Part shown: in pieces, positions 5,110-11,517 of the stretch
Position numbering within the stretch: position 1 is the first letter of the stretch
How the letters are laid out: every line of letters begins with the position of its first letter
Assembly: GCA_017463665.1 (NCBI GenBank)
Contig: JAFTOT010000087.1
Span: forward strand, 71,871-120,885
Source of the DNA: Clostridia bacterium
GTDB lineage: Bacteria > Bacillota > Clostridia > Oscillospirales > CAG-272
DNA length: 49,015 nucleotides
Direction of reading: 5' to 3'
Notes under the pieces: generated by a model
Databases searched by the model: none
What the model was told of the DNA's origin: nothing
The model's input: the letters and a program-made list of their open reading frames with translations, nothing else
Position numbers and translations under genes: made by a program

Positions 5110-5113
5110 AACA

Positions 5114-5150
5114 AGTCCTGCGGATGGAGCATTGCTCCATCCGCAGGACT
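5114..5150. terminator. bidirectional terminator (17-bp stem)
   Basis: AGTCCTGCGGATGGAGC-ATT-GCTCCATCCGCAGGACT, located between convergent genes. Confidence 0.8.
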
Positions 5151-5206
5151 TTGCTACTTGACGCTGTTCGGAGGATATGTCAACTGTTTAACAGGGATAC
5201 TTTTGT

Positions 5207-5629
5207 TTACACAAGTGCTGCGCCGAGCGCTTTGCAGGCGGCAGCCGCATCTGCGTCGGGGGCATCGCTGCAGATCACGAAATCGCACGCGAGAACCGCA
5301 CCGTCGTTTTTGCATTGCTCCTCCCAGTTGCGCATCCACTCGCCGTCGCCCCAACCGTAGGAGCCGAACAGTGCGATCTTCTTACCGCCGAGCTTTGCTT
5401 CGCATGCTGAGAACATCGGTTCAAACTCGCTGTCCTCCAGTTCCTCTGCTCCCATAGCCGGGCAGCCGAATGCGATCGCATCAAAGGTGTCCATCATAGA
5501 CGCGTCGAACTCTGCCGAGGTCAGCACTACCGATTCGCCGCCTTTTTCTTTGATACCGTCGGCAACCGCCAAAGCCATAGCCTCGGTATTACCGGTACCG
5601 CTCCAATACACTACTGCAATTTTACTCAT
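5207..5629 (-). CDS. flavodoxin (short-chain)
   Basis: MSKIAVVYWSGTGNTEAMA... is the FMN phosphate-binding T/SGTGNT loop. The protein is 140 aa. Confidence 0.9.
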   Translation of the reverse strand: MSKIAVVYWSGTGNTEAMALAVADGIKEKGGESVVLTSAEFDASMMDTFDAIAFGCPAMGAEELEDSEFEPMFSACEAKLGGKKIALFGSYGWGDGEWMRNWEEQCKNDGAVLACDFVICSDAPDADAAAACKALGAALV

Positions 5630-5668: not shown

Positions 5669-6217
5669 TCAACCGAAGACCGTAAGCCGTTCGATAGATT
5701 GACCTTTTGCATACTGCGCCGAATAGACCGCAGTACATTTTTTATATTTGGCAAAGGTTTTCTTTGCCGATTCCGCGTCGCCGTAGACTTTCCATGTGCC
5801 TACGCATTTACAGCACGCTCTGTTTTCGATAAAACCGCAGACATCCTCGGGTGGATAACCGAGAAACAGACCGATCTCATGGGGAAATTCTTCTCCCGTG
5901 CCGAGCCTTTGCATCAGCTCGAAAATACAGCGTGACGGTGTCTCCATGCCGTAACCGCGCTCACGGAGAATTCTGCATGCGGTACGATGCTGCAGATCGC
6001 GGGAAAGCTGCGCGGGGCGATAGACATAGATCAAGGCTTTGTTGTCTTGAAAGCGCAGCGGCAAAAGGCGCAAGCCTTTTTTGCCGAGCTTCGTGTTGAA
6101 GCGGCGCAGAGTTTCGCGCATTTCCGCCTCGCCTGTAAAGCTGCTCACAAACATGTTGGCGGTCTTCATCCCTGCAAGGGTGGGCGAGCAGTGTCTGACC
6201 AAAAGTTCTTCCGACAT
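5669..6217 (-). CDS. DUF3793-family protein
   Basis: The motif HCSPTLAGMKTANMF and overall length match my recollection of DUF3793. It lies between DUF2325 and flavodoxin, as is commonly seen in Clostridia. Confidence 0.6.
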   Translation of the reverse strand: MSEELLVRHCSPTLAGMKTANMFVSSFTGEAEMRETLRRFNTKLGKKGLRLLPLRFQDNKALIYVYRPAQLSRDLQHRTACRILRERGYGMETPSRCIFELMQRLGTGEEFPHEIGLFLGYPPEDVCGFIENRACCKCVGTWKVYGDAESAKKTFAKYKKCTAVYSAQYAKGQSIERLTVFG

Positions 6218-6495
6218 CAGACCGCATGCTCCTCTAAAATATTTTTCAGTGCTGCCATGGAGCTGCTGTGCGAACGTGCGATCTTAATGTTTTGTCCGCG
6301 CGTCTCGCTTAAAGCGCACCGTATCATCTTGTGCGAAACGGTATTGGTAAACAGTACAAGCAGGTCGGGACTGCCGATGTTTTTGAGGCCGTTTGTCATT
6401 TTCGGGTAGACCTTTGCCTTACATTTGTATTCGCTGCACAGATCTTTATATTGGCGCGTCATGCATTCGTTTCCGCCGACAATTACTACACTCAT
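6217..6495 (-). CDS. DUF2325-domain protein
   Basis: MSVVIVGGNECMTRQYKDLCSEYKCKAKVY...FTNTVSHKM. I prefer ATG 6495, 5 nt after GGAGG, over the ORF-track start at 6507. Confidence 0.65.
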   Translation of the reverse strand: MSVVIVGGNECMTRQYKDLCSEYKCKAKVYPKMTNGLKNIGSPDLLVLFTNTVSHKMIRCALSETRGQNIKIARSHSSSMAALKNILEEHAV

Positions 6496-6510
6496 TCTAT
6501 CCTCCATGCG

Positions 6511-6526
6511 GTTAGCAACTGCTAAC
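6511..6526. promoter_or_regulatory. palindromic operator GTTAGC-AACT-GCTAAC (site A)
   Basis: A perfect 6+4+6 palindrome, 16 nt upstream of the DUF2325 start. It is one of five copies in the window. Confidence 0.6.
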
Positions 6527-6576
6527 TCGTCGCTAAAAAAATATAAGGTTAAAACCGGATTACGAAATTATTTTAC

Positions 6577-6622
6577 CAAAGGAAAAGAGCCTTATCTACT
6601 CCAAACGGGTAGAATAAGGCTC
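6577..6622 (-). terminator. intrinsic terminator ending the feo/AraC/HMA operon
   Basis: The minus strand reads GAGCCTTATTCTAC-CCGTTTGGA-GTAGATAAGGCTC followed by TTTTCCTTT, 12 nt after the HMA gene stop. Confidence 0.75.
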
Positions 6623-6633
6623 CAAAAGAGAGA

Positions 6634-6984
6634 TTATTGCATGTCGGTTACAGGGTATCCCGCTTTTTCGATGCGCGCTTTGATCAGCGCATCATCCACA
6701 TCCTCGGCATAGGATACCACTAATGTACCTGTTTTCAGATCGACTTTGCCGCAAACGCCCTGTATATCGTTTACGACTTCTTCGACTCTGTTTTTACAAT
6801 GCTCGCAGTGCATACCGTCTACCTTAAAGGTCTTTTGATAGGCAATGTGCGGCAGCCTTTTCTTTTTCGGCTTATAGTCACCGCCGCAGCAGCAGCCGCC
6901 TTGCCCCTTGAAATGTTTGACTGCCGAAACGATACCGAAGCTGATCGCTATAACGAGTATTGCGATAATGATAAGATTTTCCAT
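6634..6984 (-). CDS. membrane-anchored heavy-metal-associated (HMA) domain protein with Cys-rich juxtamembrane segment
   Basis: MENLIIIAILVIAISFGIVSAV-KHFKGQGGCCCGG... is followed by an HMA fold with GMHCEHC. I prefer ATG 6984, after AAAGGAGAAAGG, over the track start at 7008. Confidence 0.8.
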   Translation of the reverse strand: MENLIIIAILVIAISFGIVSAVKHFKGQGGCCCGGDYKPKKKRLPHIAYQKTFKVDGMHCEHCKNRVEEVVNDIQGVCGKVDLKTGTLVVSYAEDVDDALIKARIEKAGYPVTDMQ

Positions 6985-7004
6985 GTCCTTTCTCCTTTCG
7001 GAAT

Positions 7005-7916
7005 TCAATTGCTTTTTTGATGAACAGCCCGATACTCTCGGGGCGCCATGCCTTTCACTGCGCGGAAGGCACTTGCAAATTTGCTCGAATTATCATAGCC
7101 GTGCGCATTGGCGATCTCGATGATCGGTTTGTCGGAATATTCCAGCATGTAAGCAGCGGATTCCATTTTCTGCGTCTTTATAAAAGCATAATAGGAAACG
7201 CCGTAAACCGCTTTAAACGCGTTCTTTATATTCGTCGCCGAAACATGAAATTTGTTTGCCGCCTGTTCAAGCGTGAACTTTTCGTCCATGTTTTCGGTCA
7301 GGTGCTTTGCCACATCTTTGGCAAGATCGACCTGATACTGCGATATCGAACGGTTCGCGGATGCACTGCCGCTTGCATCAAAGACGCTTAAAAACAGCAT
7401 CAGCTCAAGGATCTTGATCTTAAAATACCCCTGCTGTATCTCGGCGGGTACGTTGTACAGTTCGGAAAAAATATGTTCGACAGACGAATTGGAACGCGCG
7501 ATAAAGTAATCCTTTTCGCCGCAGAATTTCTCCGCGATCCGCCTTGGCTGCACCGCAACATCCCGCAAAAAGCAGGACAGACATTTGGGGGCGGTTTCCG
7601 TATCAATGCGGATCGTGATCCCGTGATAATGGTGAAGCGGAAAGCAGAACGACGGGGAAATACGGTCGGTCTTCGCGATCAGCAGATCGCCGGGAGAGAT
7701 ATAGCAATAATCGGCACCGATGTTGCATTCCATACGACCTTCGCGGCAGTGGAAGATCTCAAAAACTTGATCGGTGACATCTGCATCTGCGTCCGGTATA
7801 GCATTCTGAACATGGGAACTGTAATACGCGATCCGAATGCCGGGGAAGACCGCATGTTCGGTTGCGGTGTATCTGCCGCTCTCGGTGTTTGTATGCGTCA
7901 CATCCATTTGTGCCAT
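7005..7916 (-). CDS. AraC-family transcriptional regulator (N-terminal cupin-like sensor, C-terminal double HTH)
   Basis: The C-terminus TLEQAANKFHVSATNIKNAFKAVYGVSYYAFIKTQKMESAAYML...IANAHGYDNSSKFASAFRAVKGMAPREYR is a typical AraC HTH. ATG 7916 is preceded by AAGGGGG. Confidence 0.85.
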   Translation of the reverse strand: MAQMDVTHTNTESGRYTATEHAVFPGIRIAYYSSHVQNAIPDADADVTDQVFEIFHCREGRMECNIGADYCYISPGDLLIAKTDRISPSFCFPLHHYHGITIRIDTETAPKCLSCFLRDVAVQPRRIAEKFCGEKDYFIARSNSSVEHIFSELYNVPAEIQQGYFKIKILELMLFLSVFDASGSASANRSISQYQVDLAKDVAKHLTENMDEKFTLEQAANKFHVSATNIKNAFKAVYGVSYYAFIKTQKMESAAYMLEYSDKPIIEIANAHGYDNSSKFASAFRAVKGMAPREYRAVHQKSN

Positions 7917-7923
7917 CGCCCCC

Positions 7924-8280
7924 TTAAACCAGCATCTCGAAGCTTTGCTCGGAAAGCTCCGCCAAGAAGGCATAGATCGCCCTGTCCGCCGTAGGATCGG
8001 TCGTATCGGTTACAAACAGCTTTTCTTTTAATCTGCTGTGATAACTCTCGAACAGAGATGCCATTTGCAGACCGTGCTCGGTTAAGAAAACAAGACCGCC
8101 GTGTTCTTTTTCAATATACTGCAGATCTAAAAAAGTATCCATCATATTATGCACGCTCACCTTGGACAGTCCGAGTGTTTTGGCAACCGCAACGCTTTTG
8201 ATGCCCGATACCGCGTTTAGTTTTTTTAGTGCCAATAGATAACGAATATGGGAGGCGGTCAAAAAAGTATTGTTAGCCAT
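7924..8280 (-). CDS. short DtxR/MntR-family (iron-dependent-repressor-like) transcriptional regulator
   Basis: The protein is 118 aa. SHIRYLLALKKL...IKSVAVAKTLGLSKVSVHNMMDTFLDLQYIEKE..LVFLTEHGLQMA..YHSRLKEKL follows the DtxR N-terminal wHTH plus first dimerisation-helix pattern. ATG 8280 comes after GGAGG. The track ORF extends spuriously to 8403. Confidence 0.65.
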   Translation of the reverse strand: MANNTFLTASHIRYLLALKKLNAVSGIKSVAVAKTLGLSKVSVHNMMDTFLDLQYIEKEHGGLVFLTEHGLQMASLFESYHSRLKEKLFVTDTTDPTADRAIYAFLAELSEQSFEMLV

Positions 8281-8287
8281 AACTAAC
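8272..8287. promoter_or_regulatory. palindromic operator GTTAGC-CATA-aCTAAC (site B)
   Basis: It has one mismatch to the palindrome and overlaps the RBS and start codon of the DtxR-like gene. Confidence 0.5.
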
Positions 8288-8301
8288 CTCCTGCTTTTAA
8301 G

Positions 8302-8337
8302 GAAAGGGATGCGAACGCTAAGGTACGCATCCCTTTC
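8302..8337 (-). other. 12-bp stem-loop between the Cys-rich ORF and the regulator gene
   Basis: GAAAGGGATGCG-N12-CGCATCCCTTTC with no clear U-tract. It could be a processing or attenuation element. Confidence 0.4.
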
Positions 8338-8345
8338 AAGGAATT

Positions 8346-8519
8346 CTAATCGTTTTTTTCTGTGTGGTTGCCGCTGCAGCCGCCGCTGCACTTGCCGCCG
8401 CACTGCTTTGCGTAGGGGCAGCCGATGCAGGTCTCGCCGCGTTTCTTAGCTTTGTATAGATAGAACACAATGCCGCCGACAATGCACAGAAGAATCGCAA
8501 CAATTATGAAATTTTCCAT
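8346..8519 (-). CDS. FeoB-associated Cys-rich membrane protein (57 aa, below ORF-track cutoff)
   Basis: My own translation is MENFIIVAILLCIVGGIVFYLYKAKKRGETCIGCPYAKQCGGKCSGGCSGNHTEKND*. It starts 3 nt after the feoB stop. It has one TM helix followed by a Cys/Gly-rich tail. Confidence 0.8.
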   Translation of the reverse strand: MENFIIVAILLCIVGGIVFYLYKAKKRGETCIGCPYAKQCGGKCSGGCSGNHTEKND

Positions 8520-8522
8520 AAC

Positions 8523-10559
8523 TTATTTACTCATAGAGTATTCTTTCTGCTTGGTGTTAGAACCGCCAAGGGCATATTCTGCCTTCAGCTTCTTATTGGT
8601 ATTGTGGATCAGTGCAGCAATAACAGCTACCATAGCGACAACGGCGATCAGACCGCAGATTGCTGCGCCGACATTCAGGGAAGCGGGTGCGGTGATGAGC
8701 GTACCGATGGTGTAAACCAGATAAGCGATGGTGTAGCCGGTTGCAAGCTGGAGACCGATACCTGCCCAGAGCCACTTGCCGCTCTTCATCTCGGAGTTCA
8801 TTGCACCGATAGCAGCGAAGCAGGGAGGCGTGTAGAGGTTGAACATCAGATAAGCCAGAGCCGCGATCTTGGTGATTGCCATAATACCGGCAACTTCGGC
8901 ACCTGCACCTTCCATGAGGGCAAGTTCTTCCGTGTCGATAAGGTTCTCAAGACCAACGAAGCAAACTGCGAGCGTACCAACAACATTTTCCTTGGCGATG
9001 AAACCGGTAACAGCGGCAGCAGCAAGCTCCCAGCTGAGAACGCCGACGATCGGAACGAGGAGATAAGCGAAGGGACCTGCGATAGATGCGAGAATGGAAG
9101 CATCAGAACTCTCAGCAACCTGGAAGCTCCAATCAAAGGTCTGCATCAGCTGAACAGCCATGTTGCAGAGCAGAATGATGGTAGCAGCTTTCACTATGTA
9201 AGCCCAACCGCGGCTGCACATGGACTTAAATGCACCCCAAAGAGAAGGTACTTTGTATTCGGGCAGCTCGATGATGAAGAAGGACTTTCTTGCCTTGTGA
9301 CCTGCGATCTTGTTGACGAGCAGGGCACCGAGGAAGATCAGTACGATACCGGTAGCATACATCGTGAAGCTTACCCAGCCTGCGTTAGCAAAGAACGCAC
9401 CTGCAAACAGAGAGATAACGGGGATCTTTGCGCCGCAAGGCATGAAAGGAGTGAGCATTGCGGTAGCTCTGCGCTCACGCTCATTACGGATGGTACGGGA
9501 AGCCATAACGCCCGGAACGGCACAGCCGATACCGATAACGAAAGGAATAACAGACTTACCGGACAGACCGACCTTCTTGAAGATAGGATCGAGAACGACC
9601 GCAACGCGGGACATATAACCGCAGTCTTCCAAGAGAGCGAGCAGGAAGTACATGACCATAACGAGGGGCAGGAAGCCGACAACGGCAACTACACCGCCGA
9701 TAACGCCGTCAACCAGGATAGCGGACAGCAGCGGGTTTGCATCTGCGAGCAGTTCGCCTACCCAGCCCTGGAAAGTCTCCAGCCAGCCAACGAGCAGATC
9801 AGCGATCGGGGTACCGACCCAAACCTGCGAGATCTGGAACACGAGGAACATGACGACAGCGAAGATCGGGATACCCAGCCACTTGTTGGTGAGTACTGCG
9901 TCGATCGTATCGCCGATGTTTTTGTCCTTAGTGAGCACTTTGCGCGTTTCAACATCTTTTACGATCTTGTTGACAAAGTCAAAGCGCTTGCGGTCGGCAG
10001 CCTCAACAGCGTGCTTATCCGTCAGATCAATGTCGCCCTGATGATAGGGAGCCTTCTGCGTCGTGTTCGCCTGCGCTACGGCAGCTTCCACAACGGCTTT
10101 GAGACCGTCGGCAGAGGTAGAAACCGTTTCGACGATGGGGCAGCCAAGCTTCGCAGACAGAGCCGCGGTGTCGATCTTGGTTTCCTTTTTCTCGTTGATG
10201 TCTTTCTTGTTCAGCGCGACAACGACCGGAATGCCGAGCTCGAGCAGCTGCGTGGTGAAGAACAGGCTGCGGCTGAGGTTGGTCGCGTCAACGATGTTGA
10301 TGATAACATCGGGGTTTTCGTTCTTGACGTAAGAACTGGTTACGCTCTCCTCGCTGGTGAAGGGAGACATGGAGTAGGCGCCGGGGAGGTCAACAGCGAT
10401 CAGCTGTTCGGTTCCGGCATAATATGCCTTTTTGATGGGGTGTTCTTTCTTGTCTACGGTAACACCTGCCCAGTTTCCGACCTTTTCATTGCGACCGGTC
10501 AGAGCATTGTACATTGTGGTTTTACCGGAGTTCGGGTTGCCGGTTAAAGCAATTCTCAT
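8523..10559 (-). CDS. feoB: ferrous iron transporter FeoB
   Basis: G-domain GNPNSGKTT...DLPG...NKKD followed by a polytopic permease. The protein is 678 aa. Confidence 0.95.
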   Translation of the reverse strand: MRIALTGNPNSGKTTMYNALTGRNEKVGNWAGVTVDKKEHPIKKAYYAGTEQLIAVDLPGAYSMSPFTSEESVTSSYVKNENPDVIINIVDATNLSRSLFFTTQLLELGIPVVVALNKKDINEKKETKIDTAALSAKLGCPIVETVSTSADGLKAVVEAAVAQANTTQKAPYHQGDIDLTDKHAVEAADRKRFDFVNKIVKDVETRKVLTKDKNIGDTIDAVLTNKWLGIPIFAVVMFLVFQISQVWVGTPIADLLVGWLETFQGWVGELLADANPLLSAILVDGVIGGVVAVVGFLPLVMVMYFLLALLEDCGYMSRVAVVLDPIFKKVGLSGKSVIPFVIGIGCAVPGVMASRTIRNERERRATAMLTPFMPCGAKIPVISLFAGAFFANAGWVSFTMYATGIVLIFLGALLVNKIAGHKARKSFFIIELPEYKVPSLWGAFKSMCSRGWAYIVKAATIILLCNMAVQLMQTFDWSFQVAESSDASILASIAGPFAYLLVPIVGVLSWELAAAAVTGFIAKENVVGTLAVCFVGLENLIDTEELALMEGAGAEVAGIMAITKIAALAYLMFNLYTPPCFAAIGAMNSEMKSGKWLWAGIGLQLATGYTIAYLVYTIGTLITAPASLNVGAAICGLIAVVAMVAVIAALIHNTNKKLKAEYALGGSNTKQKEYSMSK

Positions 10560-10625
10560 TAGAGGGTCCTCCTATAAATGATTAACTTATATTTAATCCT
10601 TGCGGATCAAGTTACATGAGAATTG

Positions 10626-10641
10626 GTTAGCTTTTGCTAAC
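10626..10641. promoter_or_regulatory. palindromic operator GTTAGC-TTTT-GCTAAC (site C)
   Basis: A perfect palindrome in the feoA-feoB spacer, 67 nt upstream of the feoB start. Confidence 0.55.
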
Positions 10642-10645
10642 TCTT

Positions 10646-10679
10646 GGTCAAAAAACAATCAGCAGATTGTTTTTTGACC
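10646..10679 (-). other. perfect 15-bp stem-loop in the feoA-feoB spacer
   Basis: GGTCAAAAAACAATC-AGCA-GATTGTTTTTTGACC, starting 6 nt after the feoA stop. Confidence 0.6.
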
Positions 10680-10684
10680 ATCTG

Positions 10685-10909
10685 TTAAATGATGATGGCC
10701 TCAGCCAACTGATTGTCGATATTGTATCTTCCGTCCTTGATGGAAACTACGCATCCACCCTTCAAGTGGGAAACGACCGTAATGGTCTCTCCGCTGTAGC
10801 AACCAAGAGAAAACAGGAAAGCATTCAATTCTTCGTCATCGGTTTCGATCTGCTGAATGATGTACTCTTTGCCTTCAATAGCATCTTTCAAATTCATACG
10901 TACCACCAT
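10685..10909 (-). CDS. feoA: FeoA-family protein
   Basis: The protein is 74 aa: LKDAIEGKEYIIQQI...LGCYSGETITVVSHLKGGCVVSIKDGRYNIDNQLAEAIII, an SH3-like FeoA fold. An alternative start at ATG 10897 is possible. Confidence 0.9.
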   Translation of the reverse strand: MVVRMNLKDAIEGKEYIIQQIETDDEELNAFLFSLGCYSGETITVVSHLKGGCVVSIKDGRYNIDNQLAEAIII

Positions 10910-10947
10910 GTATTCTCTCTTTGAGCTGAGATAACAAGTGCCGCAAA

Positions 10948-10963
10948 ATTAGCGACAGCTAAC
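10948..10963. promoter_or_regulatory. palindromic operator aTTAGC-GACA-GCTAAC (site D)
   Basis: It has one mismatch and lies in the feoA 5' leader, 39 nt upstream of the start. Confidence 0.5.
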
Positions 10964-10981
10964 CACAGCTCGCAAAATATA

Positions 10982-10997
10982 GTTAGCAATCGCTAAC
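10982..10997. promoter_or_regulatory. palindromic operator GTTAGC-AATC-GCTAAC (site E)
   Basis: A perfect palindrome 8 nt downstream of the feoA -10 box, around the expected transcription start. Confidence 0.6.
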
Positions 10998-11005
10998 CTT
11001 TTTAC

Positions 11006-11034
11006 ATTATAGAAGCTTCGACAGGATTTGTCAA
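11006..11034 (-). promoter_or_regulatory. consensus sigma-A promoter of the feo operon
   Basis: The minus strand reads TTGACA (11034-11029), 17 nt, TATAAT (11011-11006). Confidence 0.75.
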
Positions 11035-11227: not shown

Positions 11228-11405
11228 TAAAGTGAAATCGTTCGCTTCGCTCACGGTGAAATCAAAGGCTATCGCCTTTGGTGAAATATTTTGCTAACGC
11301 AAAATGTGAAATTAAATCCACCCACCCGCCGTCGAGGCGGATTTCACTGCCCGAAGGGCATTTTCACCGCGAAGCGATTTCACCCACCCGAAAGGGTGGA
11401 TTTAG
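11228..11405. repeat. word-plus-hairpin mirror array (word GTGAAAT / ATTTCAC)
   Basis: GTGAAAT occurs at 11232, 11256, 11281 and 11306. ATTTCAC or TTTTCAC occurs at 11341, 11361 and 11377. The words are separated by small GC-rich hairpins: AAAGGC-TATC-GCCTTT, TTTTGC-TAAC-GCAAAA, CCGCC-GTCGA-GGCGG, TGCCC-GAA-GGGCA and CACCC-GAAA-GGGTG. Confidence 0.8.
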
Positions 11406-11406
11406 T

Positions 11407-11443
11407 TGAAAAAAGACCAAGCCTTTCGACTTGGTCTTTTTTC
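11407..11443. terminator. bidirectional terminator downstream of tRNA-Gln
   Basis: AAAAAAGACCAAG-CCTTTCGA-CTTGGTCTTTTTT, immediately 3' of the tRNA. Confidence 0.75.
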
Positions 11444-11517
11444 TGGCTGGGGATGAAGGATTTGAACCCTCACAAACAGAGTCAGAGTCTGTCGTGCTGC
11501 CATTACACAAATCCCCA
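11444..11517 (-). tRNA. tRNA-Gln (anticodon CUG), CCA encoded
   Basis: The minus strand reads TGGGGAT-TT-GTGT-AATGGCA-GCAC-G-ACAGA-CTCTGAC-TCTGT-TTGT-GAGGG-TTCAAAT-CCTTC-ATCCCCA-G-CCA. I folded the cloverleaf by hand. The 5' UGGGG and discriminator G are typical of tRNA-Gln. Confidence 0.9.

Follow-up and report, generated by a model that had tools for sequence, protein, structure and literature searches.

Putative DtxR/IdeR-type operators, each suited to one dimer, mark a probable iron regulon of Clostridia that includes a diverged DtxR paralogue

The stretch of Clostridia bacterium DNA analysed here (49,015 nt, hereafter the window; contig JAFTOT010000087.1, positions 71,871 to 120,885; GTDB order Oscillospirales, CAG-272) carries five copies of the palindrome GTTAGC-N4-GCTAAC, distributed over the iron uptake genes feoA and feoB, the gene of a 118-amino-acid (118-aa) protein with a DtxR/MntR fold, and a DUF2325–DUF3793–flavodoxin operon. 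Judged from their sequence, the five palindromes are DtxR/IdeR-type operators, each suited to a single repressor dimer and consisting of two inverted GCTAA pentamers 4 bp apart, and they appear to define a conserved clostridial iron regulon. With a probability of roughly 0.6, iron is sensed by a canonical two-domain DtxR whose gene lies elsewhere than in the 49-kb window. The 118-aa protein, a diverged DtxR paralogue without the metal site, is itself putatively repressed within the regulon and probably serves as a target or helper rather than as the sensor.

Results

Five palindromes around feoAB and the flavodoxin operon

A search for GTTAGC-N4-GCTAAC finds three perfect copies in the window, against 0.00 expected from 100 dinucleotide-preserving shuffles of the same sequence, and five copies with at most one mismatch, against 0.10 expected; none of the 100 shuffles reaches five. 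Even with two mismatches allowed, no further palindrome appears in the window. The sites, in the order of transcription (all neighbouring genes are on the minus strand), are as follows.

Site E, 10982–10997: perfect, GTTAGCGATTGCTAAC on the minus strand; its first base is 8 nt past the feoA −10 box
Site D, 10948–10963: one mismatch, GTTAGCTGTCGCTAAT in sense orientation; in the feoA leader, 34 bp centre to centre from site E
Site C, 10626–10641: perfect; in the feoA–feoB spacer, 67 nt ahead of the feoB ATG
Site B, 8272–8287: one mismatch, GTTAGTTATGGCTAAC; spans the spacer between the AGGAGG ribosome-binding site (RBS) and the ATG of the 118-aa gene, the ATG itself and codons 2–3
Site A, 6511–6526: perfect; directly ahead of the DUF2325 RBS, ending 15 nt before the second, RBS-preceded ATG

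These coordinates are exactly those given in the original prediction, which had listed three perfect copies and two with one mismatch. Its further statements, that the window holds no other full copy, that the chance expectation is far below one and that the sites lie where described relative to promoter, leader, spacer and gene starts, all hold. Because it begins so soon past the −10 box, site E overlaps the predicted feoA start site. Site A lies 12 nt past a possible −10 box, TATATT, at 6539–6544. A chance origin and a dispersed repeat element are both ruled out by the shuffle controls together with the fixed-position conservation of the sites in unrelated species, described below.

Geometry of a one-dimer IdeR site

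Each subunit of IdeR reads one CCTAA pentamer, and in the 19-bp box repeats 1 and 3 are contacted by the same dimer; a half binding site is also bound by a single dimer, and the 14-bp sequence TTAGGNNNNCCTAA has been proposed as the redefined consensus (PMC8464063). The spacing of TTAGC-N4-GCTAA equals that of this one-dimer sequence, and the sole difference is at pentamer position 1. The C-N4-G spacing had originally been considered distinct from the IdeR type; it is in fact the 14-bp one-dimer geometry, and the published consensus rules out a new half-site spacing (PMC8464063). The palindromes are not the 19-bp, four-repeat, two-dimer box: the flanks past positions 0 and 17 carry almost no information, and few sites extend to TTAG-TTAGC (e.g. 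L001, L005).

Similar to the operators of IdeR and DtxR in Actinobacteria, the palindromes thus present one xCTAA pentamer per subunit, in an inverted pair 4 bp apart, and overlap iron-uptake promoters. Overlap with a promoter or transcription start at metal-uptake genes is found at site E here and in 43 of 87 clusters elsewhere. Unlike the actinobacterial operators, the pentamer is GCTAA rather than CCTAA, and single-dimer units stand in tandem about 34 bp apart, where IdeR and DtxR have a 19-bp four-repeat box occupied by two overlapping dimers.

The motif recurs at iron genes across Clostridia

One genome per bacterial species was scanned for two sites 10–40 bp apart, which yielded at least 120 loci; counts out of 120 refer to the species loci listed, selected by the motif alone. 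A second set consists of 80 metagenome loci selected by the 118-aa family. The listed motif loci are almost all from Clostridia (Oscillospiraceae, Acutalibacteraceae, Ruminococcus, Lachnospiraceae, Christensenellaceae), with a few from Erysipelotrichaceae and Negativicutes. The logo over 341 sites is R-GTTAGC-N4-GCTAAC-Y, with pentamer positions 2–5 at least 98% conserved and an uninformative centre and flanks. Across loci, neighbouring sites are spaced 33–35 bp in 91 of the 143 pairs that lie at most 80 bp apart. A −10-like hexamer ends 7–9 nt before the first site in 43 of the 87 tandem clusters with a known target, and in some loci the first site directly follows a −35 box.

The open reading frames (ORFs) that flank the site clusters encode FeoA or FeoB (113), a small canonical DtxR (27) and DUF3793, DUF2325 or flavodoxin proteins (23). 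Some of the other ORFs, checked with Pfam, encode MacB-type ABC ATPases and FtsX permeases, ABC exporters, ZIP transporters, a FecCD permease and a ZinT-like lipoprotein. The individual positions recur as well. Tandem sites precede DUF2325/DUF3793/flavodoxin operons in 23 listed species loci, and a single perfect site stands ahead of DUF2325, as site A does, in L133, L170, L196 and others. A site shortly before the feoB start, the counterpart of site C, is present, for example, in L001, L005, L012, L017, L026, L031, L034, L035, L043 and L044. Loci with 118-aa orthologues of about 62% identity have the same order of feoA, feoB, small peptide and regulator and three to four motif copies at matching positions, with a tandem pair at 34-bp spacing after TTGACA-17-TATAAT and one or two sites before feoB. 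The closest relative at the DNA level (L120, 76% identity) has the feoA–feoB–small peptide unit with no 118-aa gene behind it.

Conserved sites at the promoters of feoAB, flavodoxin operons and metal transporters support the iron-regulon reading, and their arrangement looks like a repressor–operator architecture on an iron-uptake and iron-sparing regulon. The original prediction had seen in the palindrome an operator marking an iron-type regulon of feoAB and the DUF2325–DUF3793–flavodoxin operon, and had suggested conservation in related genomes as a check; motif, position and targets all recur, in at least 120 species-level genomes and the 80 metagenome loci. Literature searches turned up no account of the motif, of a DtxR regulon in Clostridia or of the family of the 118-aa protein; where a Feo paper mentioned DtxR, it did so only in a remark on filtering a database.

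Some loci depart from the common layout. In a human-gut lineage (L142, 6225–6645; also L141, L145, L149, L151, L152) the feoA leader is about 370 nt long and carries five to six GTTAGC-N4-GCTAAT sites, the first three 34–35 bp apart and the later ones about 110 bp apart with G+C-rich hairpin-like repeats in between. The tandem pattern also occurs in three bins with labels from outside the Firmicutes, L040 (Burkholderiaceae), L073 (a Bacteroides faecis bin) and L087 (a Rhizobium bin). L073 is probably a mis-binned contig, because its MacB-type ABC gene is the one found in the Clostridia loci, and the hits in L040 and L087 may have arisen by chance.

The 118-aa protein has a DtxR fold and has lost the metal ligands

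The AlphaFold2 model of the 118-aa protein (pLDDT 87) is predicted to contain an N-terminal winged helix-turn-helix followed by a helical dimerisation domain, and Foldseek matches it to MntR, DtxR, IdeR and SloR at TM scores of 0.6–0.73. The best structural matches are the MntR proteins of Bacillus subtilis and E. coli (TM 0.71–0.73, Foldseek E = 5e-5), which have the same two-domain size, and the best match of the family profile is E. coli MntR (2h09, E = 3e-5). Alignment of the 118-aa family with the canonical small DtxR proteins by hhalign extends over 105 columns (probability 98%, E = 1.4e-13). The protein has no match to Pfam PF01325 or PF02742 at E ≤ 0.01, and its NCBIfam MntR score is below threshold (23.5 bits, cutoff 153), while some distant family members do have precomputed PF01325 matches. 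The family comprises 283 representatives at 50% clustering (E ≤ 1e-10). A homologue search with a 107-sequence alignment returned 43 proteins, three of them named (hypothetical protein, Eubacteriales / Oscillospiraceae), a set too small for a phylogenetic profile.

The same hhalign alignment pairs R13, H/Y81, Y/C103, L106 and A107 with DtxR M10, H79, C102, E105 and H106, and the window protein has R13, Y103, L106 and A107 at the positions of M10, C102, E105 and H106. Among the 107 aligned members, position 13 is R or K in 100, position 81 is Y or F in 85, position 103 is C or Y in 84 (C 54, Y 30), position 106 is L, I, M or V in 105 and position 107 is A, S or G in 101. The ligand positions are thus replaced across the family, which has lost the canonical metal site. 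With DtxR as a bridge, we take the MntR ligands D8 and E11 to correspond to R/K13 and L16 of the family and H77 to Y/F81; MntR E99, E102 and H103 are presumably without a counterpart. In the recognition helix, where S37, P39 and T40 of DtxR contact the pentamer, S or T39 is found in 93 of 107 members, P41 in 84 (V in the window protein) and S42 in 101, and positions 44–45 are H plus a variable residue, versus S-Q.

The protein also invites comparison with FeoC of Gammaproteobacteria, a small winged-helix protein encoded downstream of feoB. Unlike FeoC, it has a DtxR-type dimerisation domain, and members of its family are also encoded away from feoB, ahead of a MacB/FtsX transporter operon. A FeoC-like role was rejected, the protein having no FeoC Pfam match at E ≤ 0.01.

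A canonical small DtxR is the regulator most often found beside the operator

Related loci encode, divergently from feoA, a protein of 121–123 aa with both PF01325 and PF02742. Aligned to DtxR, it keeps M10, H79, C102, E105 and H106; over 52 such proteins from the fetched loci the counts are 46, 52, 51, 51 and 51, respectively. Its recognition helix is conserved as well (P39 in 50, S40 in 51 and R43 in 50 of the 52). Like IdeR and DtxR, the canonical small DtxR of the relatives keeps M10, C102, E105, H106, S37, P39 and S/T40. Unlike them, it has only two domains, without the SH3-like third domain, occurs in Clostridia and has Arg instead of Gln at position 43. In IdeR, Gln43 contacts the first pentamer base (PMC8464063). 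Arg43 would fit the G that here takes the place of C at that base.

The two proteins are distributed over the motif loci as follows.

All 120 listed species loci selected by the motif: canonical small DtxR in 30, 118-aa family in 4
The 45 of these in which feoB is near-complete and 700 bp or more can be seen downstream of it: canonical small DtxR in 17, 118-aa family in 3
The 23 of these with flavodoxin-type operons: canonical small DtxR in 5, 118-aa family in 0

The canonical protein is also encoded near many loci that carry a 118-aa orthologue. In the metagenome set of 80 loci, the 118-aa gene almost always stands behind the operators, either behind feoAB or, in one abundant human-gut lineage, as the first gene after tandem sites. 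These co-location counts and the metagenome loci make the canonical protein the regulator most often encoded beside the operator, and across the wider range of taxa.

In a human-gut lineage (loci L170–L183, L190, L191 and L199–L201; e.g. L170, 9331–16360) a canonical DtxR gene is divergent from a unit that stands behind tandem sites. This unit starts with the 118-aa gene and continues with genes for a MacB-type ABC ATPase, an FtsX/MacB permease, an HMA protein and an AraC regulator; further on, DUF2325–DUF3793–flavodoxin is preceded by a single site. MacB-type ATPase genes are direct motif targets in L018, L024, L042, L055, L065 and L073 as well, and their place behind the motif suggests an uncharacterised iron-regulated transporter.

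Site B is conserved over the start of the 118-aa gene

The register of site B starts 7 nt upstream of the A in the ATG. Of 37 distinct start contexts among orthologues, some only 36–45% identical in protein, 17 have a site in this register with one mismatch or none, and the non-coding left half, GTTAGC, is found with at most one mismatch in 19 of the 37, versus about 0.5% expected per position. Lineages without site B have different residues at positions 2–3, so it is apparently the DNA site, not the protein, that keeps the Ala-Asn codons in place. Site B looks like a real operator, and its conservation in distant orthologues places the 118-aa gene under operator control, either by its own product or by the canonical DtxR. 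The original idea that the regulator gene lies inside its own regulon is upheld to the extent that the site over its start is conserved; the sensor role it implied is unlikely. Site B would let the iron sensor or the paralogue block the 118-aa gene separately from feoAB.

Genes, promoter and hairpins around the sites

In the order of transcription, the unit consists of feoA, feoB, a Cys-rich peptide gene, the 118-aa gene, an AraC-family regulator gene and an HMA/CopZ-like gene, and is followed by a hairpin and then by the DUF2325, DUF3793 and flavodoxin genes.

11006–11034, minus strand: feoA promoter, TTGACA-17-TATAAT, 12 of 12 consensus positions
10685–10909, minus strand: feoA (Pfam FeoA, E = 1.4e-12)
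8523–10559, minus strand: feoB (Pfam FeoB_N, Gate, FeoB_C)
8346–8519, minus strand: FeoB-associated Cys-rich small membrane protein (Pfam PF12669, 29.2 bits, cutoff 27)
7924–8280, minus strand: 118-aa DtxR/MntR-fold paralogue (wHTH118), assigned by fold and profile
7005–7973, minus strand: AraC-family regulator (Pfam HTH_18, HTH_AraC)
6634–7008, minus strand: membrane-anchored HMA (CopZ-like) metal-binding protein (Pfam HMA, E = 2.1e-15; NCBIfam CopZ-like)
About 6583–6622, behind the HMA gene: terminator-like hairpin and T-run, read directly from the sequence
6217–6507, minus strand: DUF2325 gene (Pfam PF10087, E = 2.6e-30), whose true start is probably the ATG at 6495
5669–6217, minus strand: DUF3793 gene (Pfam PF12672, E = 1e-55)
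5207–5629, minus strand: short-chain flavodoxin (NCBIfam TIGR01753, 131.6 bits, cutoff 123)
5113–5151: terminator closing the flavodoxin operon

Pfam and NCBIfam agree with the gene identities originally assigned, with the exception of the 118-aa protein, which has no Pfam Fe_dep_repress match. The AraC regulator gene also lies behind the 118-aa gene in the related loci L129, L133–L135, L159 and L196. A bovine-gut metatranscriptome contig of a related strain spans 10245–10982 and stops short of the promoter; its end agrees, as weak evidence, with the predicted feoA start.

Several hairpins accompany the unit. A perfect 15-bp inverted repeat, GGTCAAAAAACAATC-TGCT-GATTGTTTTTTGACC, lies at 10646–10679 (minus strand) after the feoA stop codon and 4 nt before site C; it is A+T-rich, has no T-run and could be an attenuator or an RNA-processing structure. 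A G+C-rich hairpin at 8302–8337 (minus strand) separates the Cys-rich peptide gene from the 118-aa gene. Just upstream of the 118-aa gene, L130, L132, L141, L142 and L154 have a G+C-rich stretch that closes with a T-run and resembles the 3' portion of an intrinsic terminator, so expression of the paralogue may depend on read-through.

Between groEL and the feoA promoter lie a Gut-1 RNA (Rfam RF01706, 70.3 bits, gathering score 50) at 11336–11408 and a tRNA at 11447–11517, both on the minus strand. Their place is taken in the syntenic relative L133 by a canonical small DtxR gene, immediately upstream of feoA. DNA contigs of run X1 include a variant without 61 bases inside the Gut-1 region (11312–11374).

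Discussion

The proposed sensor is most likely a protein of about 120 aa that keeps the M10/C102/E105/H106 site and has Arg at position 43, where a base is contacted. Under iron sufficiency, a dimer of this DtxR-family protein, loaded with metal, would sit on the operators. Bound at sites E and D, on and just past the feoA start, it would block initiation or early elongation; sites C, before feoB, and B, at the 118-aa start, would act further down the same transcription unit, and site A would control the separate DUF2325–DUF3793–flavodoxin operon. When iron becomes scarce, the repressor would leave, the Fe2+ importer would be made and ferredoxin-type carriers would be exchanged for flavodoxin. 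In Clostridioides difficile, a study of Fur reportedly found feo genes and flavodoxin induced by iron limitation. The output of the two regulons, Fe2+ uptake and flavodoxin in place of ferredoxin, is thus alike, but regulator family (there Fur) and operator differ.

Several points weigh against a canonical DtxR as the sensor. Neither tblastn nor a 52-sequence profile run against all 379 window ORFs finds such a protein in the window. Both return the 118-aa protein alone, so a hidden canonical gene was rejected and the 118-aa protein is the sole DtxR-fold protein there. The presence of a canonical DtxR elsewhere in the genome is presumed, and this is the main weakness of the proposal, the window being derived from ruminant gut metagenomes; which protein binds, whether it responds to iron and what the paralogue does are likewise what we infer. 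About 70% of the motif loci have neither regulator inside their 8-kb tile, and co-location is an indirect measure. Furthermore, the recognition helix of the 118-aa family is strongly conserved (S42, H44 and M46 are nearly invariant) and starts S-K-P-S-V as in DtxR, so the protein may well bind the same sites, and an operator over its own start codon is the expected look of autoregulation.

These last features, together with the location of the gene inside the regulated operon and the lack of any other DtxR-fold protein in the window, are what speaks for the 118-aa protein as the cognate metal-sensing repressor on all five palindromes, autoregulated through site B; roughly half of the orthologue lineages keep that site across RBS and ATG, and in one lineage (the L170 group) the gene comes first after the tandem sites. 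We nevertheless regard this part of the original prediction as quite unlikely to be correct. Throughout the family all four primary-site ligands are replaced, and three of the substitutes (R/K, L/I, A/S) cannot bind metal; the position equivalent to the base-contacting Q43 varies (N, A, T, K or S) though the motif is invariant. The family is present at only 4 of the 120 listed motif loci and 3 of the 45 motif-controlled feo operons; Lachnospiraceae, Erysipelotrichaceae and Negativicutes include motif loci with the canonical DtxR alone nearby, and many loci with a 118-aa orthologue have the canonical protein too. A scheme in which the two proteins share the operators, with the canonical DtxR repressing in the presence of iron and the paralogue, made after derepression, serving as a metal-free Feo brake or an anti-repressor partner, seems to us unlikely as the full account, even though it has attractive features. 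The homology over 105 columns includes the dimerisation helices, the first five recognition-helix residues are common to both proteins, the paralogue gene is downstream of operators in nearly all loci with enough flank, and 100 of 107 members have a basic residue, R/K13, where DtxR has the metal ligand M10. On the other hand, helix positions 44–47 differ (H-N-M-M in the 118-aa protein, S-R-A-V in the canonical one), the scheme adds a component absent from most motif species, and both DNA binding by the 118-aa protein and heterodimers are hypothetical.

The palindromes might also be read as RNA, folding into hairpins within leader and intercistronic transcripts (which at site B, for example, would conceal the start codon) instead of serving as DNA operators. 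Sites D, C, B and A are transcribed, the AUG would sit in the loop at site B, and the strand asymmetry of the sites is what raised the question. With sites from L001–L206 oriented to the target gene, position 16 is C in 77% and T in 22% (GCTAAT), and its mirror, position 1, is G in 97% and A in 3% (ATTAGC being rare). Among one-mismatch sites 118 have T16 and 8 have A1; GCTAAT, the commonest mismatch and the one in site D, keeps a G-U pair in the sense strand. However, the stem sequence is invariant in more than 100 species with no compensatory changes, GTAAGC, a frequent form of site B, disrupts a pair without compensation, and the inner pair 6/11 has no wobble bias. First sites overlap the transcription start or directly follow the −35 box, where they are untranscribed, and the geometry is that of a known protein-binding site. 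The RNA reading was dropped for want of compensatory change and is very improbable.

With the canonical DtxR as the favoured sensor, the 118-aa paralogue is probably a secondary, metal-independent DNA-binding factor that is induced by iron starvation and acts on the same or similar sites. More tentatively, the metal-blind paralogue, made only once the sensor has let go of the operators, could possibly act on those very operators, the one over its own start included, either as a metal-independent brake that limits Feo expression during starvation or as a partner that inactivates the sensor.

Iron control in gut and rumen Clostridia (Oscillospiraceae, Ruminococcus, Acutalibacteraceae, Lachnospiraceae) has mostly been assumed to be based on Fur and is almost unstudied. 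The regulon exposes an unannotated family of DtxR fold that has lost its metal site and is still wired into the circuit; if true, a metal-blind paralogue on shared operators would constitute a two-paralogue circuit not described for DtxR-family regulation. Three uncharacterised components, DUF2325, DUF3793 and the MacB/FtsX-type ABC transporter, become tied to iron limitation, and RGTTAGC-N4-GCTAAY, often in tandem about 34 bp apart, offers a sequence handle for iron-responsive genes in genomes and metagenomes.

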